Assembly (NCBI GenBank): GCA_045588915.1
Contig: JAZNFA010000003.1
Span: 45,407-109,406 of the forward strand
Length of the DNA: 64,000 nucleotides
Source: Clostridia bacterium
GTDB taxonomy: Bacteria; Bacillota; Clostridia; Christensenellales; UBA1242
Reading direction: 5' to 3'
The notes under the pieces were generated by a model that worked only from the letters and a program-made list of their open reading frames with translations, was not told the origin of the DNA and searched no databases. Shown piece by piece: positions 36,797 through 54,213 of this stretch (the stretch's first letter is position 1; the number at the start of each line of letters is the position of its first letter). The position numbers were made by a program, and so were the translations under genes.

Positions 36797-36826
36797 AAAA
36801 GACGCACCAATCCGGTGCGTTTTTTT
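36797..36826. terminator. bidirectional intrinsic terminator (pot operon / paralog P1)
   Basis: ACGCACC-aatcc-GGTGCGT followed by a T run. It overlaps the P1 stop codon. Confidence 0.75.
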
Positions 36827-37778
36827 AAAGTGAATTTTTAATATCTAAATCCAATAACTGTGAATTATTTTTAAACTTCTTGCATATTTGTTGTGCTTCA
36901 ACCAATAAGCATTCATATTCAAAACCCAAACATTCTACTTCATTTTGCAAGTTTTTCATTTCCGTTTTGGTTAAATTTTTTTTGTTATCATTATTACCCA
37001 AACGATTGATGATATCACGATGTTGATTTTGGTATTCACTGTAATATAAAGTTGACCAACGTGCATATAAGATATTCGCAAGATTTACTAACTTCTTCCA
37101 TTGTCTCGGCATTTTTTTGGCAAAAACACCGTCAGCACTTAACAATTGATTGACACCAGACAAATGGAAAGTATTCGCAAAAGTTTGTGCCATAACCTTG
37201 TCTTGCCATACGCCCTTACACATTTCCACACCAACTTCGGCATGGTAAGAGTCAACGCCCAAATATTTCATCGCCCCAATAATCCGATTCCGAAATAACT
37301 CACTATATTCTGGGTCACAACACTCAATTGTTTTTTCAATACTTTTCATATAAAAATCATCAACATCGGCATTTAACGTAATGCTTGCATAAGCACTTGC
37401 TAGATTATATTCATATTGACAACGTAACGCATCAAACTTTTCCGAACTTTCAATATAACTTTCAAAATAACAAAGTGGCAAACGTTTCACAGCTAATTGA
37501 TTTTTGATTGGAATCCGTGGATTATTCACATAGTAAGCATCGCAGATTTGTTCAAAATAACGAGCCAGCCAAGCCGCATCACGTGTGCGATATGGTAAAA
37601 AAGCTTTATTATAATAACTAACAAGGATTTTATTTTTTGGTGTTAAACCTTTTAAATTATTTAAAATATATTCTTGTTTGGGAAAAACAGCAGGCAAACA
37701 CGCATCTAAAAGTTCACTTACTTTCAGGTGTCCACTTTGAAAATTTCTCGCCTTAATTTGAGTTAATTTATTCATCAT
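36825..37778 (-). CDS. paralog P1 of an unrecognised family (317 aa)
   Basis: Shares the motif blocks LPYRTRDAAWL, KFDALRCQYEYNLASAY, DDFY, MKYLGVD and TFANTF with the four upstream ORFs. Confidence 0.7.
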   Translation of the reverse strand: MMNKLTQIKARNFQSGHLKVSELLDACLPAVFPKQEYILNNLKGLTPKNKILVSYYNKAFLPYRTRDAAWLARYFEQICDAYYVNNPRIPIKNQLAVKRLPLCYFESYIESSEKFDALRCQYEYNLASAYASITLNADVDDFYMKSIEKTIECCDPEYSELFRNRIIGAMKYLGVDSYHAEVGVEMCKGVWQDKVMAQTFANTFHLSGVNQLLSADGVFAKKMPRQWKKLVNLANILYARWSTLYYSEYQNQHRDIINRLGNNDNKKNLTKTEMKNLQNEVECLGFEYECLLVEAQQICKKFKNNSQLLDLDIKNSL

Positions 37779-37788
37779 AATGAATACC

Positions 37789-38709
37789 TTAAATATTTTT
37801 CCCTTGTGTGTCGCTAATTTGGCGATGGTTCACTTCACGTGCAACTTCATTCACAATTTTGTTATATTCTGTATGCGCTTGACGCACTTCGGCACTTAAT
37901 TTGTACGCTTGTGCCGAACTGATTTTCATATTCGCAGTCGCAGTTCCCACACGGTCTATCGTATCTTTGTGTTGATCATAATGTTTTTTTTCACGTTCCA
38001 ACATCCAAAGCTGGAAAAATTTTAATTCTTTACTTGCAAAACTTTCCCATAATACTGGGTTATCAATACTCAAATTTAAACGCTGTTCTCTGTTAATTTT
38101 GCCAATATTGTTTTGCTCAATACGATTATAGAATGTTTGATGCATTGTTTTATGATGCCATAAATCCAAGTTACGTTCGATATGCTCTTCAGTTGCACCA
38201 TAACTTAACCCAAGGACCATCATAACCTTAGCAACCTTTTCCGGGAAAACTTGATCAAGGTTACGATTTTTCATAAAATTTACTTTTTCTTTTTTGCTTA
38301 AGAAAAAGTCGTCAGAATTTTCGTCCAATAATTTTTTGATGTATGCTCTTACTAAATTATTTTCATATTCTTTACGCAAAGCATTAAACTTCGCTGAAGT
38401 TTTGATATAATGTTTAACACTATCAAAAGAGATTTTTATATCTTTCAAATCACATTTAAATTTTGTCATCGCCATAACATATTCAGCCAACCAGTCATCG
38501 TCATTGATATGAAAAGGCAAAAAGTTAACATTATAGATAAATGTATATTTTTTATCTGCCATATTCAAATTATCTAAAGTTTGCGTAATAAAAGCTTCCG
38601 ATGGAAATAAACCTTGTAAAGATTTATCCAAAGTCATAAATAATTGTTGTTCGTATATTTTTAAATGTAATTTATCAAAACCGTTTAATATCTTCTGCTT
38701 TAATTTCAT
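37789..38709 (-). CDS. paralog P2 of an unrecognised family (306 aa)
   Basis: LPFHINDDDWL, KFNALRKEYENNLVRAY, DDFF, TFYN, NMK. Has its own promoter. Confidence 0.7.
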   Translation of the reverse strand: MKLKQKILNGFDKLHLKIYEQQLFMTLDKSLQGLFPSEAFITQTLDNLNMADKKYTFIYNVNFLPFHINDDDWLAEYVMAMTKFKCDLKDIKISFDSVKHYIKTSAKFNALRKEYENNLVRAYIKKLLDENSDDFFLSKKEKVNFMKNRNLDQVFPEKVAKVMMVLGLSYGATEEHIERNLDLWHHKTMHQTFYNRIEQNNIGKINREQRLNLSIDNPVLWESFASKELKFFQLWMLEREKKHYDQHKDTIDRVGTATANMKISSAQAYKLSAEVRQAHTEYNKIVNEVAREVNHRQISDTQGKNI

Positions 38710-38714
38710 CCTGC

Positions 38715-38744
38715 ATTATAGCGAAGTTCCCCACTTAATGTCAA
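38715..38744 (-). promoter_or_regulatory. P2 promoter, leaderless geometry
   Basis: Minus strand: TTGACA (38744-38739), 18 nt, TATAAT (38720-38715), 5 nt, ATG (38709). Confidence 0.65.
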
Positions 38745-38767
38745 GACGACAATACGTGTTTTTCCAT

Positions 38768-38806
38768 AAAAAAAACTTGTTTTCGGAAAATCCTACTCAC
38801 AAGTCT
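38768..38806 (-). terminator. intrinsic terminator after P3
   Basis: Minus strand: GACTTGT-18 nt loop-ACAAGT followed by T8. Confidence 0.55.
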
Positions 38807-38822
38807 TTTGCAATTGATTTTG

Positions 38823-39818
38823 TTATAAATTAATCGTTGGTTCGATTGGCTTTGGTTCTCTAATTTGTTTCAAGATTGGGAATCGATTATCACATTCACG
38901 TAAACTTGCCTTGTAAACATCAATCATTTTTACATTATTTTGACGTAAGATTTCAGCTTTCTTTGGACTCATTTTCATATTTGCATTAACTTTATTTAAA
39001 CGACGGAAAACTTCGCCGTATTCTTGATATTCACTATAATCACGATAAGCATTCCAATCTTCATAAAGTTTAGTTTCCATTTTTTGCATTGCCTTCAATA
39101 CATTTGGTTGATTGTCTCTTAACCAAGCGTGGTCGTTTTTGTACAAAACACGATCCGGATTAACATTGTTCATAAAAGCAATTCTTCTTGCTTCTGGTTG
39201 CCAAATATCACTGTTTAAAACAATACTATCTTGAATAATCTTATCGTCGATACCCAAAAATTCCCCCATCTTGACCGAACGATTACGAATAATCCAATCA
39301 TAACTAATACTATTTTTTACACTTGCTTTTGCGCTAGCACTGGTGAAAAAGTCACCCACATTATCATCTGCCCCTAATTTGATACAACCTTTCATTAAGC
39401 TGTATTGATATGCTTCACGATTTTTATTGAATAAAGTTGAAGTTGCAACATATTTTTCAAAAATCTCAGCTTTAATTTCTGGTAATTCACTGTCAGCAAC
39501 GTTTTTCTTTTTATTTTCTAAAAGACTGTTTCTTGTTTTTAATTTACGGCAAATACTGTAAACATTTTCAATAAACTTAGCCAACCATTTTTCGTCATTG
39601 ATATGGAAAGGTAACAATCCCATTTCGTAATTATTTTGAGCATTTTTATTTTCACGAGTAATTGTTTTTAAATTAACTTCAAGAAATTTTTCGCTAGGAA
39701 AAAAATATTTATTGCATTCATCCAAGATTGCAAAAGCTTCTTTCATTTCTTGCTTATCTAATTCTTCCATAGTATTTTGAAAATTTTTTTCCAAAGCTAA
39801 ATGTTTTAATTTTTCCAT
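38823..39818 (-). CDS. paralog P3 of an unrecognised family (331 aa)
   Basis: LPFHINDEKWL, YVATSTLFNKNREAYQYSL, GDFF, FLGID, NMK. Confidence 0.7.
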   Translation of the reverse strand: MEKLKHLALEKNFQNTMEELDKQEMKEAFAILDECNKYFFPSEKFLEVNLKTITRENKNAQNNYEMGLLPFHINDEKWLAKFIENVYSICRKLKTRNSLLENKKKNVADSELPEIKAEIFEKYVATSTLFNKNREAYQYSLMKGCIKLGADDNVGDFFTSASAKASVKNSISYDWIIRNRSVKMGEFLGIDDKIIQDSIVLNSDIWQPEARRIAFMNNVNPDRVLYKNDHAWLRDNQPNVLKAMQKMETKLYEDWNAYRDYSEYQEYGEVFRRLNKVNANMKMSPKKAEILRQNNVKMIDVYKASLRECDNRFPILKQIREPKPIEPTINL

Positions 39819-39823
39819 ACTAT

Positions 39824-39853
39824 ATTTTAACTTACTCTACTTTTAGCTGTCAA
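39824..39853 (-). promoter_or_regulatory. P3 promoter, leaderless geometry
   Basis: Minus strand: TTGACA (39853-39848), 18 nt, TAAAAT (39829-39824), 5 nt, ATG (39818). Confidence 0.65.
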
Positions 39854-39901
39854 TAACTGTACAAAAATATTTAAACTTTTTTTATCAGTTTTTTTATTTG
39901 A

Positions 39902-40888
39902 TTATTTATTCAAATTGTCATAATCAAGATTTACCAAGTTATTAAAGATAACTGTTTGGTACGCTAAATCATATTTGCGACTCTTTAAACGTAATTCTTC
40001 AAGCTTGTCAGTATCCATTTTCATCGCCTTACTCATAACACCGTACTTATTCATCATACGTTTGTTTTTATCATAATATTCTTTTTCTTTGATATTAACC
40101 CAATTTTCCATACTGTCAGTTTTCATTTCCGACAAAACTCGCCAAGCTTGCACATCGTGTTTTTTTAACATTGTTAAATTAGGTACACTATATAAGTTAT
40201 TTCTGTTGATAAAAGTCTTACGCAATGTTGAACGCAACCAAATTCCCGTAGTTGCAGTTAATGCAATTTCAATATTCTTTTTCGCAATTCCGATGTTTGT
40301 CATCATTTGCATAATTTCAATTGGAAAATTTTTGGCAAAATTAACATCTGTTTCTATCGATTTTCTATTTGCTTCGTTGAAAAAAGCATCAGGTTGATTA
40401 GTAACAATCCATTTCGCAATGTAAGCCTTCACAAAATCTTGTTCGAACTGAGAACGACGTGCCTCAAATTTTGGTGATTTTTGGACATACGCTAAAATTG
40501 TTTTCGTATTGACTGGCGCAGATTCATAAGCTGGAGAATAATAAAAAGTACTTTTTTGTAAATTACGGTAAGGCAACATTTCTTGAGATTTTTCCTCACC
40601 AAAAACAGCTTGGTCTTTTTTCAAACTGACGATTTGCGCTAAAACCCTTTCGATAAACATCGACAACCATAAGTCATCACGAGTACGAAATGGCAAAGTT
40701 TTAAAGTGGAAAATAAAATCTGATTTTCCATCATCCTTTGTTAAACCTTTAACAATCTTTTTCGTTGTTTCTTGATTGGGGAAAATATCATCCAAATATT
40801 CATCTAATAATTGAAAATCCTTAGCTAATTGTGATTTATTCACTAAACCATTTGTTGAAAACTTTGATACAATTTTTTTTAATTTCAT
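39902..40888 (-). CDS. paralog P4 of an unrecognised family (328 aa)
   Basis: LPFRTRDDLWL, YVQKSPKFEARRSQFEQDFVKAY, DAFF, TFINRN, MKMD. Confidence 0.7.
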   Translation of the reverse strand: MKLKKIVSKFSTNGLVNKSQLAKDFQLLDEYLDDIFPNQETTKKIVKGLTKDDGKSDFIFHFKTLPFRTRDDLWLSMFIERVLAQIVSLKKDQAVFGEEKSQEMLPYRNLQKSTFYYSPAYESAPVNTKTILAYVQKSPKFEARRSQFEQDFVKAYIAKWIVTNQPDAFFNEANRKSIETDVNFAKNFPIEIMQMMTNIGIAKKNIEIALTATTGIWLRSTLRKTFINRNNLYSVPNLTMLKKHDVQAWRVLSEMKTDSMENWVNIKEKEYYDKNKRMMNKYGVMSKAMKMDTDKLEELRLKSRKYDLAYQTVIFNNLVNLDYDNLNK

Positions 40889-40893
40889 AGATT

Positions 40894-40923
40894 ATTATAC
40901 TCCTTCCAAATTCCAAAAGTCAA
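40894..40923 (-). promoter_or_regulatory. P4 promoter, leaderless geometry (an alternative reading is GGAG as an SD 11 nt upstream)
   Basis: Minus strand: TTGACT (40923-40918), 18 nt, TATAAT (40899-40894), 5 nt, ATG (40888). The -35 hexamer is also the 3' arm of the AGTCAA-13-TTGACT hairpin behind P5. Confidence 0.55.
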
Positions 40924-40953
40924 GATTGTCCGATTTTTGACTAGTCTTAGAAA

Positions 40954-41904
40954 TTAACGTAAAACTAATTCAGGTTGTTTATTTTTTTCAGAATTTAAAA
41001 TATTTAAACAATCAACAACTTGTTTTTTGTACTGATAACTTAGTTTTTGCGTATTAACAACTAATTTATATTCACTATCAGCATTGTTTTTCATATTTAC
41101 TGTTGCTGGCTTTGTTTGCTTAATTACAGATTGATGTCGTTGATTGTATTTAATATCACACAAAGCATTCCAACTTTGAAATAATTGATTTTCAGTATTA
41201 ACTAAGTTTCTTGCTGCAACCGGAGATTTCTTTAACAACATTGAACGTTCTTTCTGGCTTAAAAGTAATCTTTTTTGATTAAAGACATTAACAAATGTCA
41301 ATTTTCTCGTTGTGTCATACCACAAATCTTTTTTCAATTCGATTGTGTTTTCAACCACATCTTCATCCAAACCAAGATATTTCATTGCATTAACAACACG
41401 TTCACGGAATAAAACATCATATTCCGGACTTTTAATTTCGCGTTTTTTGGTAGCAATATCAGCATAAAAATCATCACAACAAGTCTGAGCAACTTGCAAA
41501 TAAGCAGTAACTAAATTACGTTCAAAGTCACCACATTTCTTTTCAAAAACTGGCGATTCTTCCACATACATCCGAATATAATCAACCGGAATGTATTTTA
41601 GTTCTTCCGTTGCAATACCTCTTTTGGTTAAATTGTAAATGCTCTTTAAATCATCATTGTATCTTTTGTTGATGTATTTGACTAACCATTCGATGTCGTG
41701 AAGACGAAATGGCAAATAGCGTTGATCATAAATACGCGTAATTTTTTTATCATCAGTTTTAAGCACTTTCATTACTTCCAATGCAAAAGCCTTACCTAAA
41801 AACAGGAAATCTAAATGATTATCTAAAATACTAAAATATTCGCTCTTCAATTTTTGTAAATGAGCTTGTTGAAACTTTTCTGGTAATATATTTTTTAATT
41901 TCAT
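40954..41904 (-). CDS. paralog P5 of an unrecognised family (316 aa)
   Basis: LPFRLHDIEWL, YVEESPVFEKKCGDFERNLVTAY, DDFY, MKYLGLD, TFVNVF, NMK. Confidence 0.7.
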   Translation of the reverse strand: MKLKNILPEKFQQAHLQKLKSEYFSILDNHLDFLFLGKAFALEVMKVLKTDDKKITRIYDQRYLPFRLHDIEWLVKYINKRYNDDLKSIYNLTKRGIATEELKYIPVDYIRMYVEESPVFEKKCGDFERNLVTAYLQVAQTCCDDFYADIATKKREIKSPEYDVLFRERVVNAMKYLGLDEDVVENTIELKKDLWYDTTRKLTFVNVFNQKRLLLSQKERSMLLKKSPVAARNLVNTENQLFQSWNALCDIKYNQRHQSVIKQTKPATVNMKNNADSEYKLVVNTQKLSYQYKKQVVDCLNILNSEKNKQPELVLR

Positions 41905-49972: not shown

Positions 49973-50970
49973 GCAACTAATGCTGCTGTTTCAAAATAAC
50001 TATGTGGGTCATTGGCGTATTTCAAAGTTGTTTCCAAATTAGCAAAAATACGTAACGCCGTTGCCAAACGTGGACTGGGTTTTTGAACATAAGCATCCTT
50101 AATTGCATTTAATGTCCCATTTAAAATGCGTGCCGTACCCGTTGAACTATTGAAAATTTGGTTTACCGTATCACGCACAGCTTGTGGTTCACCTGCCACT
50201 ATTTGATTAACCAATTGTTGGAAAATTTGCGCATCAAGACCACCAACCACTTTGTTAATCATTGCCGTCGTAACTGCATCTTTTCCACAATATGCCGCCA
50301 CCGTATCAGCAAAAGATAAAGCATCACGAACACTGCCTTGACCTTCCTTTGCAATCAAAGTAACCGAAGCATCATCAGCAACAATCTTTTCTGCTTGAAA
50401 AACTTTTTTCACAACTTTTTCAATTTCACCCAAAGCTACATTTTGGAAATTAAAACGCAAACAACGACTTTGGACAGTTGGCAACAATTTATGTGGTTCG
50501 GTTGTTGCCAAAACAAAAATCACGTGCGCTGGTGGTTCTTCCAAAGTTTTCAACAAAGCATTAAACGCTGACCCCGAAAACATATGCACTTCGTCGATAA
50601 TGTAAACTTTATACTTACCGACAACAGGTGGATATTTTACGCTTTCAATTAAGTCACGGACAGCATCAACACCATTATTACTTGCAGCGTCAATTTCAAA
50701 GATATCCATACTTTTATTTGGATTTTGACACCACGCACATTTGCCACAAACTTTTCCATTGTGAAAATTCTCGCAATTGACAGCATCAGCAAAAATTTTC
50801 GCGACCGAAGTTTTTCCAGTACCACGTGTTCCACAAAATAAATATGCGTGTCCAATTTTTTGGTTAGCAATTTGATTGCTCAAAGTTCGGGTAATAAAAT
50901 CTTGACCAACAACTTCAGCAAAATTTTTTGGACGATAAACACGATAAAAAGATTTTACGTTACTACTCAT
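49960..50970 (-). CDS. dnaX: DNA polymerase III clamp-loader subunit, gamma-like short form (336 aa)
   Basis: YRPKNFAEVVGQ, GTRGTGKTS, zinc module CGKCAWC, IIDEVHM, SRC sensor (QSRCLRF). Confidence 0.92.
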   Translation of the reverse strand: MSSNVKSFYRVYRPKNFAEVVGQDFITRTLSNQIANQKIGHAYLFCGTRGTGKTSVAKIFADAVNCENFHNGKVCGKCAWCQNPNKSMDIFEIDAASNNGVDAVRDLIESVKYPPVVGKYKVYIIDEVHMFSGSAFNALLKTLEEPPAHVIFVLATTEPHKLLPTVQSRCLRFNFQNVALGEIEKVVKKVFQAEKIVADDASVTLIAKEGQGSVRDALSFADTVAAYCGKDAVTTAMINKVVGGLDAQIFQQLVNQIVAGEPQAVRDTVNQIFNSSTGTARILNGTLNAIKDAYVQKPSPRLATALRIFANLETTLKYANDPHSYFETAALVACGA

Positions 50971-51740
50971 TAGTCGCGTTGCCTCTTCATAAATTCAAAT
51001 GCTAATTCACGATAAGCCTTCGCACCAGGACATTTTGCATCATAAACACAAATTGGTTTTCCATAACTTGGTGCTTCTGCTAAACGCACATTGCGAGGAA
51101 TTTTTGTATTAAAAACTTTACGACCAAAGAATTTTAACAATTCGGCTTGCACTTGTTTAGTTAATAAATTGTTTGTCATCATCGTCACCAAAACACCTTC
51201 AATATCAATATCTGGATTCAAGCCTTGCTTCTTAATTAAGCGAATCACACGCACCAACTGACTAATACCTTCCAAAGCAAAGTACTCACACAAAATCGGA
51301 ATAATCACAGTATCAGCAGCCGTCATCGCATTAACCGTTAACAACGTCAAAGTCGGTGGACAATCAATAAAAATATAATCATAACTATCACGAATCTTAT
51401 TCAAGCAATTACGTAAAATTTGTTCACGTCCACTCATACGTACTAACTCAATTTCTGCACCACTTAAATCCTGTGTACTCGGCAAAATTTCCAACCCTTT
51501 CACCGAAGTTAATTGAATCGCATCAGTTGGGTCAACTTGGTCACACATTACATTATAAACTGAAACAGTTTCATCAGTTACTTCCACACCAACACCACTA
51601 CTTGCATTATGTTGAGGGTCAAAATCCACAATCAAAACTTTCTTTCCTAAATCGTGCGCCAAATATGCAGCCAAGTTGATACAGGTTGTTGTCTTACCAA
51701 CCCCACCTTTTTGCATTGCCACAGCAACAATTTTTCCCAT
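50970..51740 (-). CDS. parA: chromosome partitioning ATPase ParA/Soj
   Basis: Deviant Walker A MQKGGVGKTT. 256 aa. The stop overlaps the dnaX start (TAATG). Confidence 0.92.
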   Translation of the reverse strand: MGKIVAVAMQKGGVGKTTTCINLAAYLAHDLGKKVLIVDFDPQHNASSGVGVEVTDETVSVYNVMCDQVDPTDAIQLTSVKGLEILPSTQDLSGAEIELVRMSGREQILRNCLNKIRDSYDYIFIDCPPTLTLLTVNAMTAADTVIIPILCEYFALEGISQLVRVIRLIKKQGLNPDIDIEGVLVTMMTNNLLTKQVQAELLKFFGRKVFNTKIPRNVRLAEAPSYGKPICVYDAKCPGAKAYRELAFEFMKRQRD

Positions 51741-51862: not shown

Positions 51863-52771
51863 CTATATCTTGTGGTTTTTTAAATAATTAACCACTCTTT
51901 CCAGTTCTTCAGCCGCATAATAAGCAATTACAACCTTACCACGTTCCAAAGTTCCGTCAATTTTGACCTTTGTACCAATTGCACGTGACAAGATTTTTTC
52001 TTGTTCACGAATTTCCGGCGCTTTGCTTGGTTTAGCTTTGCTTGTACCAAAATCAAAAGAAGTTGTTTTTCCTTCGATTAAATCTCCCAAAGCACGCACC
52101 GACAAACCTTCATTCACAGCACGACGCGCAAAGTCAATTTGCTTTTGTTCGTCGCTAACACTCATCAAACGAATTGCGTGACCAGCTGTTAATTGTTGAT
52201 TACTAATGTATTGTTGAATCTCCTGTGGCAAACTCAACAAGCGTAAAGAATTGGCAATTGTACTACGTGGCTTTGATAAACGCTCAGCAACCTTTTCCTG
52301 TGTCAATTTGTGTTCGTCCATTAATTTCTTAATTCCTAACGCCAACTCAATCTCATTCAAGTCAGCACGTTGTAAGTTTTCAATAATTGCAATTTCTGCT
52401 ACTTGCTTCGGATTAAATTTCTTAATCACAGCTGGAATTTCCACTAACCCAGCCATACGCGCTGCACGCCAACGACGTTCCCCAGCAACAATCATAAAAC
52501 GATTTCCCACTGGGGTGACCAGGATTGGTTGAACTACGCCATAAGTTTTAATACTTTCTGCTAACTCTCTTAAACTTTCTTGATTAAAAACTTTACGTGG
52601 TTGATCGATATTATTATCAATCATTGCAATTGCAATTTGTTGCACACCATCATCATTTGCATCTTTTACTTGTTCATTACCAGTTACATCACTCATTGGT
52701 GTTAATTCATCGTCCAAAACGATACCACCAAACAATGCACCCAGACCTTTACCTAATTTTTTTTCTGCCAT
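51863..52771 (-). CDS. parB: ParB/Spo0J family partition protein
   Basis: KGLGKGLGAL, QPRK, the GERRWRAA CTP-binding box, and HTH ...STIANSLRLLSLP. Unusually located upstream of parA. Confidence 0.88.
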   Translation of the reverse strand: MAEKKLGKGLGALFGGIVLDDELTPMSDVTGNEQVKDANDDGVQQIAIAMIDNNIDQPRKVFNQESLRELAESIKTYGVVQPILVTPVGNRFMIVAGERRWRAARMAGLVEIPAVIKKFNPKQVAEIAIIENLQRADLNEIELALGIKKLMDEHKLTQEKVAERLSKPRSTIANSLRLLSLPQEIQQYISNQQLTAGHAIRLMSVSDEQKQIDFARRAVNEGLSVRALGDLIEGKTTSFDFGTSKAKPSKAPEIREQEKILSRAIGTKVKIDGTLERGKVVIAYYAAEELERVVNYLKNHKI

Positions 52772-52808
52772 AACTTAATTGTAAATGTCTTTCACAAAAA
52801 AAGCAAAT

Positions 52809-52824
52809 TGTTTAACGTTAAACA
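52809..52824. promoter_or_regulatory. parS-like 16-bp perfect palindrome, copy 1
   Basis: TGTTTAACGTTAAACA, extended to the 22-bp palindrome AATTG...CAATT. It lies 38 bp upstream of the parB start. Confidence 0.7.
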
Positions 52825-53331
52825 ATTTTAATAAAAATACCACAAAAAAACAGCGACATAGACAACATTTTCCGAATAAACATTCAAACTCAGACAAAAG
52901 TTTTAAAAAAACAAACCAAACATAAAAACAAACAAGACAAATTTTTACTTATTCTCGCAATCATCAAAAATGACAAACAATAACTAAATACTGCGTACAT
53001 TCAATCTTACAAAGGTCTAATTCATTTATTTGCCGTTTCATTTTTAACACCTTTCAGTTTATTAAAACTTTTTTTACCAACATCACATTTTCAGAATAAG
53101 CAACACAAAATTTCAATTGAACAAATTGCATCACATTTGATTACATATATTTTACAGTGAATATTTTTATCTAGCTAAATAAAAAAACATTAAGTCATTA
53201 CAATATCAATTTTGCTTTGTCATTTTAAATTAGTTTACACACACAAACAAGGACAAACAAGCGATTTACAACCCTGGAAGTTATTAACATTATCAATGTA
53301 AACAATTATTTACAAGTCAATCAAGTTTAAT

Positions 53332-53347
53332 TGTTTAACGTTAAACA
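53332..53347. promoter_or_regulatory. parS-like palindrome, copy 2
   Basis: Identical TGTTTAACGTTAAACA with AATTG/CAATT flanks. Confidence 0.7.
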
Positions 53348-53473
53348 ATTTCAATTTAAACATAACGACAAAACACCTTAAAATAAAAAAGAAAGTTATT
53401 TACAATCACAATGTAAATAAACCTTAGTTAAAACTAACATAATAATTAACATTACTTTATTATATCAACACAT

Positions 53474-53489
53474 TGTTTAACGTTAAACA
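53474..53489. promoter_or_regulatory. parS-like palindrome, copy 3
   Basis: Identical 16-mer. Confidence 0.7.
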
Positions 53490-53562
53490 ATTCCCAAAAT
53501 ACACATAAGATTAAGGCAAATAATTTTTCCCTATTTAACACAAAAAAGCAGGCATTCGAAAA

Positions 53563-53578
53563 TGTTTAACGTTAAACA
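53563..53578. promoter_or_regulatory. parS-like palindrome, copy 4
   Basis: Identical 16-mer. Confidence 0.7.
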
Positions 53579-53610
53579 ATTTATCTTATCTGAGATTAAA
53601 CATAGCACAC

Positions 53611-53640
53611 TTGACATAATCCGACACCAAAGGGTATAAT
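53611..53640 (+). promoter_or_regulatory. cvpA promoter, leaderless geometry
   Basis: TTGACA (53611-53616), 18 nt, TATAAT (53635-53640), 6 nt, ATG 53647. Confidence 0.65.
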
Positions 53641-53646
53641 AAAAAT

Positions 53647-54213
53647 ATGAAAGCAGGATTAGTAGCAGATATCATTGTTGCAATACTTATTCTCATTAAC
53701 TTGATTGTTTGCACACGTCTTGGTTTTGTTCGCTGTGTACTTCAATTTTTTTCAACTATCTTAGCGCTATCTGTTGCTTTGTTATCAGCAACACCTCTTG
53801 CAAATTTCTGTGACAAAAATTGGAACTGGGTTTCAGCAATTGAGAATTGGCACATTCCATTTATTAGTGCAAACACAATTTTAAAACTGCTAATTGGAAT
53901 TGCTGTTTTTGTTTTAGTACGTCTGGTTTGTATTTTAATTGATAAACTCCTAAGACATTTAAAAGAAAAATTAAAAGCCGTCAATATCATCGACCGTATT
54001 CTTGGAACAGTTTTTGGATGCCTAGCAGCTTTATTTGAATTAACCTTAGCCTTTATTATTATCAACCAATTCGGTTGGGCATCAGCATTATCATTAACTC
54101 CCGAAGCAGGTGGATTCTTCGCTTATCGACTTTTTGAATTTTGTCGCACATATATGTTTAATATCATCGGCGAAATTTTTGCAATGGCTTCGGCATCAAC
54201 CCCAAAAATCTAA
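53647..54213 (+). CDS. cvpA: CvpA family membrane protein
   Basis: 188 aa. Four TM helices, with N-terminal ...DIIVAILILINLIVCTRLGFVR typical of CvpA. Confidence 0.7.
   Translation: MKAGLVADIIVAILILINLIVCTRLGFVRCVLQFFSTILALSVALLSATPLANFCDKNWNWVSAIENWHIPFISANTILKLLIGIAVFVLVRLVCILIDKLLRHLKEKLKAVNIIDRILGTVFGCLAALFELTLAFIIINQFGWASALSLTPEAGGFFAYRLFEFCRTYMFNIIGEIFAMASASTPKI

Follow-up and report, generated by a model that had tools for sequence, protein, structure and literature searches.

The 64-kb window analysed here (64,000 nucleotides of contig JAZNFA010000003.1, assembly GCA_045588915.1, Clostridia bacterium) carries a parB gene, a parA gene downstream of it and, upstream of parB, a gene-free gap of 875 bp in which a 16-bp palindrome, TGTTTAACGTTAAACA, closely similar to the bacterial centromere site parS, occurs four times. 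All coordinates below are those of the window, and the palindromes are labelled parS-1 to parS-4.

52772-53646, no strand: AT-rich, gene-free spacer of 875 bp between parB and cvpA, with all four sites; largest open reading frame (ORF) 46 amino acids or less
52809-52824, no strand: parS-1, the proximal copy; exact match; begins 53 nt upstream of the parB start codon; extended palindrome 52806-52827
53332-53347, no strand: parS-2; exact match; flanks AATTG...CAATT, giving a 22-bp palindrome
53474-53489, no strand: parS-3; exact match
53563-53578, no strand: parS-4; exact match; the copy closest to the cvpA promoter
51863-52771, minus strand: parB (302 amino acids), full-length; CTP-binding (cytidine triphosphate) box GERRWRAA; helix-turn-helix (HTH) SKPRSTIANSLRLL; altered CBM2 motif GHAIRLM
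50970-51740, minus strand: parA/soj (256 amino acids), Walker-type ATPase downstream of parB; Pfam AAA_31 (6.1e-65), CbiA, ParA and MipZ

Exactly four exact copies of TGTTTAACGTTAAACA are present in the window, at a density of four within 770 bp. When up to three mismatches were allowed, eight matches were obtained against 1.9 expected, a number that none of 100 shuffles reached. The four inexact matches carry three mismatches each, which is the chance level, and therefore no copy with two mismatches or fewer exists elsewhere in the 64 kb. Compared with canonical parS (TGTTNCACGTGAAACA), positions 6 and 11 alone are changed (C6A/G11T), 14 of 16 positions are the same, and G2 and A7 are kept. 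The gap has 25% GC against about 37% in the window, with G at 8% on the plus strand, and it is the longest real ORF-free stretch of the window, the next real gap being 419 bp; an 817-bp entry in the gap listing is an artefact from overlapping ORFs. A first-pass annotation, made by a model from the letters of this DNA, had already described a gene-free, AT-rich region with four identical palindromes beginning at 52809, 53332, 53474 and 53563 and nowhere else in the window, which differ from Firmicutes parS only at positions 6 and 11 and retain the G2 and A7 separating parS from the Noc-binding site (NBS), and it had taken the region for the longest non-coding stretch; all of this holds. Its description of conserved ATTG...CAATT flanks is right for three of the copies and wrong for one, which reads AATG...CAATT.

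As that annotation had also proposed, the adjacent gene encodes a ParB-family protein with the GERRWRAA box, and it is a complete three-domain ParB. Pfam assigns ParB_N (1.1e-31), HTH_ParB (1.5e-31) and ParB_C (3.2e-07); the score with the ParB/Spo0J model TIGR00180 is 172 bits (cutoff 58), the PDB entries 7bnk (1.6e-51) and 6t1f (1.2e-47) are matched, and the N-terminal peptide MAEKKLGKGLGALF is present. With the NCBIfam Noc model the protein scores 219 bits, under the cutoff of 315. Its residues were mapped to Caulobacter numbering, used hereafter, via a gap-free alignment with Myxococcus ParB and a published residue list (Jalal et al., 2020; PMC7383237); window R169 corresponds to Caulobacter R173, and window I200 and R201 to positions 204 and 205. 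The window ParB retains Q162, K171, R173, N178 and G201, and has S, not K, at positions 179 and 184. R173 reads G2, and G201 instead of R goes with A7 (PMC7383237); as both are kept, the window ParB is parS-type, not Noc-type. Noc/NBS identity was rejected on these residues (R, S, S, G), on the Noc score below threshold, on the kept G2 and A7 and on the clustering of the sites at parB. The earlier view of a Spo0J-like rather than Noc-like protein is supported by the same four residues and the same score. Nevertheless, the HTH stretch which had been quoted as informative is not where the relevant difference lies: the change that tracks the variant is found downstream, in the helix motif GHAxxL (CBM2), where I200 and R201 follow "GHA".

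ParB and Noc share a conserved contact with DNA at position 204 (PMC7383237). In its usual form the CBM2 motif is GHA(R/K)(A/V)LL; its Arg is needed for parS binding, and alanine mutants of its basic residue in Pseudomonas putida and Burkholderia lost both parS binding and partition (Sanchez et al., 2013; PMC3597684). In the window ParB the motif is GHAIRLM, without the basic residue. GHA(I/L)RL is found in 95 of 95 ParBs of at least 250 residues in the clade to which the window protein belongs, and in 0 of 44 next-nearest homologues, which read GHAK/Rx. An exhaustive search of 1.84 billion representatives returned the clade as one 50%-identity cluster (382 bits), with the next match at 259 bits. 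Of the 130 nearest 50%-identity representatives that could be anchored, 128 carry R or K at residue 204. The only other one of these 130 without a basic CBM2 residue is P0209 (GHAMPL, HTH GKSRVYVTNVTRLL), which may be another specificity variant. Within the DNA-binding domain, columns 172, 204, 205, 231, 233 and 237 split the two groups without overlap; column 172, a DNA-contact position, is P or T in the clade against S or N outside, and column 205 is R throughout the clade and never outside.

Relative loci were gathered via ParB and then scanned for variant-type and canonical sites, each with at most one mismatch. The 24 clade loci, with I or L at position 204 and ParBs 54-100% identical to that of the window, contain 93 variant-type sites and no canonical site in 347 kb, whereas the 6 nearest outgroup loci, with K or R at position 204, contain 16 canonical sites and no variant in 83 kb. 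The outgroup sites read TGTTCCACGTGGAACA or TGTTTCACGTGAAACA, and the consensus tGTTNCACGTGAAACa is unmatched at up to one mismatch in the window and in the clade DNA. Relative to the parB start, the 93 variant sites are confined to -1124 to +745, with 86 upstream and 7 inside the parB frame, and in 24 of 24 clade loci the 100 bp directly ahead of parB include a site. The canonical sites of the closest outgroup loci (L040, L042 and L167) occupy equivalent places, just upstream of, inside and at the 3' end of parB. The clade loci examined have the order recF-cvpA-gap-parB-parA-dnaX in common with one outgroup locus (L042), the remaining outgroup loci being rearranged. Conservation stops about 4 nt outside the sites and the sites themselves are conserved; kept while their surroundings diverge, they are therefore under selection and not merely inherited with the neighbourhood. 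What is conserved is a 22-bp unit, AAW-TGTTTAACGTTAAACA-WTT, with A at 98% at -1 and 87% at -2, and most canonical sites of the closest outgroup loci also have flanks of the type AAAW...WTTT. A comparison of ParB residues and parS over relatives, proposed together with the first-pass annotation, thus gives variant sites only in the 24 loci and canonical sites only in the 6. It bears out the symmetric C6A/G11T change as a lineage trait, fixed in the clade and co-occurring with the ParB change, and it favours reading the palindromes as parS-type sites for the neighbouring ParB, as they track parB across relatives and the sister clade has canonical parS there.

The same pattern might be expected if ParB tolerated either base at position 6, the variant having been fixed by drift, AT-biased mutation or copying and the CBM2 change being incidental. 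The genomes are AT-rich (about 37% GC), only one evolutionary transition is observed, and some sites do vary, position 6 being G in L002 and L164, and position 7 being T in L003, L011, L039 and L170. However, a tolerant protein should leave a mixture of sites, and none is seen, which weakens the case for drift: over 126 half-sites (63 sites) position 6 is A in 98%, G in 2% and C in 0%, the 347 kb hold 0 canonical sites, and the ParBs concerned have diverged to about 53% identity. The residue replaced is moreover basic in 128/130 representatives, and in two species its mutation to alanine abolishes parS binding (PMC3597684); residue 205, for its part, is always R within the clade and never beyond it. 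A tolerant ParB with an incidental CBM2 change is therefore considered unlikely.

Further features of the gap bear on how the sites may be used.

52778-52806, minus strand: putative parB promoter, of consensus type; -35 TTGCTT (52801-52806), 17-nt spacer, -10 TACAAT (52778-52783), 6 nt to ATG
53611-53640, plus strand: cvpA promoter TTGACA-18-TATAAT; 12/12 consensus match; ends 6 nt before the ATG at 53647
53393-53420, no strand: inverted repeat GTTATTTACA-N7-TGTAAATAA, a repeat family with a second, weaker copy at 53278-53305

parS-1 ends 2 nt ahead of the conserved -35 TTGCTT, and the extended parS overlaps this -35. The window and every one of the loci L001-L015 but L013 (14/15) share the conserved arrangement TTGCTTTTTT-N11-TA(C/A)AAT-N6-ATG, and TTGCTTTT, present in 13/18 intergenic regions, is one of their most widely shared 8-mers. 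The distal sites 2-4 (53332-53578) adjoin the cvpA promoter. Canonical parS likewise abuts a TTGACA -35 in outgroup L040, and in L038 and L039 the site is placed between the -10 and the Shine-Dalgarno sequence. Since outgroup parS is also found at the parB promoter, the link between parS and promoter is older than the variant. The location of parS at the parB promoter suggests autoregulation, because the proximal site directly adjoins the -35 of the parB-parA promoter and ParB occupancy should thus feed back on its own expression. In both divergent genes (52772-52806, minus; 53611-53647, plus) 6 nt separate the end of the -10 from the ATG, and a Shine-Dalgarno sequence is lacking. On this basis the parB-parA messenger RNA (mRNA) is predicted to be leaderless; the parB mRNA appears so from its sequence, and cvpA appears leaderless too. 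No RNA run containing the region was found. The distant relatives L038, L039 and L040 have ordinary GGAGG leaders instead.

These promoters also permit the palindromes to be operators of an unrelated transcription factor for divergent parB/cvpA promoters, and not ParB sites. The gap is a divergent promoter region with one site directly beside the parB -35 and another 33 nt ahead of the cvpA -35, and it contains a second conserved inverted repeat, TTATTTACA-N7-TGTAAATAA, so other factors probably bind there. Nevertheless, 14/16 positions are the same as in parS, sister-clade genomes have canonical parS in the same positions, the sites track the DNA-binding motif of ParB, and relatives carry copies within parB and at the end of its coding sequence, where an operator would be hard to account for. 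Distant clade members have variant parS inside the parB frame, where it is translated LFNVKQ (in the linker at about residue 250 and in the N-terminal domain at about residue 115); such copies occur in proteins P0083-P0097, at L038:6335 and 6704, at L166:7937, and in L170 and L171 at about +745. The parS embedded in parB of the canonical sister clade reads VPRGT or FHVEQ, and the site type is therefore readable from protein sequence alone. An operator function of this kind is regarded as very improbable.

The 500 bp separating sites 1 and 2 hold, as their sole conserved element, the TTATTTACA-N7-TGTAAATAA inverted repeat, in nearer relatives. Its copy at 53393-53420 is conserved in the alignment of the window, L001, L003, L014 and L015, and it is found in 9/18 clade intergenic regions. 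Written as GTTATTTACA-N7-TGTAAATAAC, the repeat has two window copies (53278-53305 and 53393-53420). A non-coding RNA within the 500-bp spacer was also considered and is not supported, there being no Rfam match, no excess structure and no terminator-like sites. For the gap as a whole (52772-53646), Rfam gave no match either at gathering score or at E<=1, and folding was poorer than in shuffles on both strands (z +1.7 and +2.1).

On the parB side of the gap the gene order is parB, parA, dnaX, ybaB and gltX, and parB-parA-dnaX is kept in relatives. On the other side lie cvpA (plus strand; Colicin_V family, 2.6e-16; ATG at 53647), recF (minus strand), a phosphodiesterase-family gene, a putative fpg, assigned by ORF position and synteny with relatives, and a DegV-family gene; the window also carries the housekeeping genes murB, tsaC and PBP5. 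Given these housekeeping neighbours and the clade-wide synteny, this is a chromosome region and not a plasmid: the window region is housekeeping chromosome, neither plasmid nor oriC itself. A plasmid type Ia centromere was rejected on the chromosomal neighbours, the synteny across the clade and the lack of clustered matches in viral contigs. The "plasmid-like centromere organisation" proposed in the first-pass annotation is not borne out, the window carrying recF, dnaX, ybaB, gltX, murB and fpg. Clustering beside parB, which had been taken as a plasmid trait, is seen in the canonical sister clade as well, with 2-4 sites in the same places, and parS clusters by parAB occur in other chromosomes (Myxococcus, 22/22; P. 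aeruginosa, 4 near ori; review table).

An AT-rich, unstructured, gene-free stretch beside replication and partition genes could alternatively be a replication origin or DNA-unwinding element, or a repeat of a mobile or REP-like family. No DnaA box (TTATCCACA-like, at most one mismatch) was found within 52772-53646, and the 22 matches across the window against 24.4 expected are at chance. GC skew is negative across the entire window without a switch, and neither dnaA nor dnaN nor a second ParB paralogue was found in the 64 kb. The oriC reading was rejected on the lack of a DnaA box in the gap, of a skew switch, and of dnaA and dnaN in the window. As regards a repeat family, no further copies occur in the window, the DNA around the sites is not conserved, and the 19 single, unclustered matches in 2.9 million viral contigs are about chance by our own estimate. 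The metagenome matches listed (at least 120) are mostly singletons from unrelated environments, and the clusters among them adjoin clade parB, plus the unrelated L078 (8 copies) and L085 and L160 (2 each). Membership in a repeat or mobile element family, named in the first-pass annotation as an outcome that would speak against it, is thus not indicated by the viral matches or by other copies in the window. An origin or a mobile repeat has hardly any probability in our view.

The L078 fragment (L078:1-500, Ga0210057_1006758) carries eight exact copies of the 16-mer in an array of about 126-bp periodicity at the contig end of an unrelated genome. The array is interleaved with a second repeat, AATTGTTTCACACTTTGTTTTACACCC, and ftsH and a sigma-factor-like ORF are nearby. 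No ParB was found on the fragment, and Pfam returned nothing for the neighbouring ORFs; in L078 the same site may have been put to use independently. The sister clade with canonical parS has dnaA and dnaN 2-5 kb from parB, divergently transcribed (L040:8728-11552, L042:8062-10595 and L167:12758-16076). With dnaX right after parA and dnaA and dnaN absent in 64 kb, the par locus of the window clade is therefore separated from dnaA.

The host lineage comprises uncultured Clostridia from herbivore and other gut metagenomes. The relatives are all metagenome-assembled genomes (MAGs), labelled Clostridia, Eubacteriales or Christensenellaceae bacterium, with three labelled Prevotella. These three "Prevotella sp." MAGs (L005, L008 and L013) have a Clostridia-type recF-cvpA-parB-parA locus with ParB 65-78% identical, and their contigs are probably mis-binned or mislabelled. 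The parB ORF of L014 (L014:5992-6906) ends after 112 codons, yet tblastn covers residues 1-302, and the break is either a frameshift or an assembly error. Gap length among relatives ranges from about 150 to 1117 bp. The longest case, L164:8884-10000, has a 1117-bp gap upstream of parB in which parS sites are carried by repeats of about 65 bp in two inverted arrays; one array has four units (three within one mismatch of the variant and one degenerate), the other has three, and a spacer of about 600 bp lies between them. This locus is more similar to a plasmid-like iterated centromere than the window is. Elsewhere in the window, five tandem ORFs of similar size (306-331 amino acids; 36825-41904, minus strand) form an island of 29-30% GC, and Pfam gave no match for the three that were searched.

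A second layer of variation concerns the core of the site. An asymmetric sub-variant, TGTTTATCGTTAAACA, is found at 4/4 sites of L003 and, as its reverse complement, at 3/3 sites of L011 and 2/2 of L039, with a mixture in L015 and L170. The tetramer ACGT was counted in these and related loci, outside parS in the case of the relatives.

L003: ACGT observed 0, expected 21.6; sites without ACGT 4/4
L015: ACGT observed 0, expected 24.6; sites without ACGT 2/4
L011: ACGT observed 3, expected 31.8; sites without ACGT 3/3
L170: ACGT observed 0, expected 21.4; sites without ACGT 3/3
L166: ACGT observed 4, expected 30.9; sites without ACGT 0/3
Window: ACGT observed 329, expected 320; sites without ACGT 0/4
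L014 (89% identical to L015): ACGT observed 34, expected 32; sites without ACGT 0/5

ACGT has been lost from 12/17 sites in the five avoiding loci (L003, L011, L015, L166 and L170) versus 4/76 in the 19 others, the core AACGTT being replaced in ACGT-avoiding genomes by ATCGTT, AACGAT or AACATT. Positions which are ACGT in L014 are mostly GCGT, ACGC or GCGC in L015 and L003, indicating selection and not CpG decay. L170 was picked beforehand from its ParB peptide FNDKQ (= AACGAT), and as predicted it contains 0 ACGT. Since L003 and L015 altered opposite half-sites of the orthologous proximal site, these were independent events. Two exceptions are noted: L039 has the sub-variant without present ACGT avoidance, and L166 avoids ACGT yet keeps its sites. 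The likely cause is ACGT-specific restriction-modification pressure colliding with the centromere, and the change of A7 to T in one half-site would be a tolerated escape. It is a possibility that the spelling of the centromere is driven by such conflict and that an ancestral loss of CACGTG was of the same kind. Avoidance of CACGTG as a present-day driver of the main switch was rejected (38 observed against 33 expected in the window), and a restriction-modification origin of the switch at base pair (bp) 6 is only speculation. In the window, GATC (34 observed, 156 expected) and CATG (18 observed, 156 expected) are both strongly under-represented, and other clade members avoid other 4-bp palindromes (AGCT, GCGC, CGCG and CCGG), pointing to diverse restriction-modification loads. 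No report of restriction-modification reshaping a centromere was found, although no dedicated literature search was made.

Compared with canonical ParABS systems (B. subtilis Soj/Spo0J with TGTTNCACGTGAAACA; Caulobacter, Thermus and Myxococcus), the window system is alike in its three-domain ParB, GERRxRA box, N-terminal ParA-stimulating peptide, adjacent Walker ParA, R173 and G201, 16-bp palindrome (14/16 same) and sites at or inside parB. It differs in having A:T instead of C:G at bp 6 and GHA(I/L)RL instead of GHA(R/K)(A/V)LL, in the order parB then parA, and in having all known window sites in one 875-bp gap. Noc and NBS (ATTTCCCGGGAAAT; Jalal et al., 2020; PMC7383237) offer a parallel, in that a symmetric two-position palindrome change goes together with a few interface substitutions in one lineage. 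Nevertheless, Noc changes bp 2 and 7 via R173Q and G201R with permissive K179 and K184, whereas the window clade changes bp 6 with residues 204/205; Noc, a paralogue, has acquired a new function and its sites are scattered, whereas the window ParB is the only one seen in the window, with ParA and with its sites at parB. Secondary-chromosome and plasmid systems, such as SopB-sopC of F, likewise have partner-specific centromere sequences. CBM2 is not conserved on secondary-chromosome ParBs with differing parS, and in SopB the residue equivalent to that of CBM2, R219, recognises one particular guanine of sopC (Sanchez et al., 2013; PMC3597684). Those systems belong to additional replicons, their ParB is strongly diverged and their sites are unrelated, unlike the housekeeping locus, the recF-cvpA-parB-parA-dnaX synteny and the minimal two-position change of the window. 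Clustered chromosomal parS of Myxococcus xanthus (22 sites) and P. aeruginosa (parS1-4) also place several sites next to the par operon, but with canonical sequence, and the window is denser (four in 770 bp).

The region is probably a chromosomal centromere of an uncultured gut Clostridia lineage, with four parS in a lineage-specific variant, and very probably the four sites form a functional parS cluster of the window ParB. The system is one that works like ParABS with all its parts and departs from the family in two sequence criteria that are correlated, the consensus of parS and the basic residue of CBM2. By homology with characterised systems, ParB dimers would nucleate on each palindrome via the HTH, with R169 as the equivalent of the arginine reading G2; with CTP bound at the GERRWRA box, ParB would close into clamps and slide onto flanking DNA. 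Close loading sites and an 875-bp gene-free spacer would allow a dense ParB complex to form without covering essential genes, and the gap would presumably act as a platform for clamp loading and accumulation, several sites raising the loading rate. The N-terminal LGKGLGALF peptide would stimulate the ATPase of the adjacent ParA and thereby drive segregation of the region.

With regard to the variant itself, the co-evolved preference change appears most likely: the loss of the guanine contact at bp 6 would be matched by loss or re-aiming of an arginine. The change of bp 6 from C:G to A:T in both half-sites would then correspond to the change of the CBM2 Arg/Lys to Ile/Leu, with Arg one residue later. 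A hydrophobic residue would replace the Arg/Lys that reads the lost guanine of C6:G, and the arginine would sit one position further along the helix. From sequence facts, phylogenetic co-occurrence and positional conservation, which are observed, we infer binding, preference, the causal residue and autoregulation with differing confidence. The evidence leans towards a real shift in the preference of ParB; that residues 204/205 cause it has slightly less than an even chance, and the stricter proposal, a natural reprogramming across the clade of a centromere that is nearly universal elsewhere, in which R/K204 to I/L with R at 205 made ParB selective for A:T at bp 6 and the pair orthogonal to the canonical one, is offered tentatively.

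Several points weigh against this interpretation. Site and protein changed on one branch, hence as a single evolutionary event, and their association is not statistically independent evidence of causation; besides 204/205, columns 172, 231, 233 and 237 also separate the clades. All clade members are known from MAG sequence, from which binding and preference are deduced. The base touched by the Arg204 equivalent in ParB-parS co-crystals was not found stated in the accessible literature. The scan covered 347 kb of clade DNA, and other sites, including canonical ones far from parB, may still exist. A search with the gene at the end of the window, for an extension of its contig, matched only contigs of 2-3 kb. 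In the window, dnaA, dnaN and a GC-skew switch are lacking, and the window thus does not show the sites to be near the origin. If ParB binds both sites equally, the finding shrinks to a taxonomic sequence variant.

A literature search for GTTTAACGTTAAAC gave no match, nothing relevant was found for parS named "non-canonical" or "divergent", and no description was found in the literature of a chromosomal ParB without the CBM2 basic residue and with a matching site change. Chromosomal parS is regarded as among the most conserved protein-binding sites in bacteria, and to our knowledge the ParB-to-Noc switch is the only well-studied natural specificity change in the ParB family. If true, the case described here would be a second, minimal natural switch and an independent test of how protein and site change together while staying essential, with one base pair per half-site changing along with a relocated CBM2 arginine, and it would provide a route to the base read by that arginine. 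The pair would also be a candidate orthogonal ParB/parS pair for multicolour DNA-labelling tools, which are built on such pairs. In addition, the avoidance of ACGT suggests that restriction-modification pressure can reshape a centromere.

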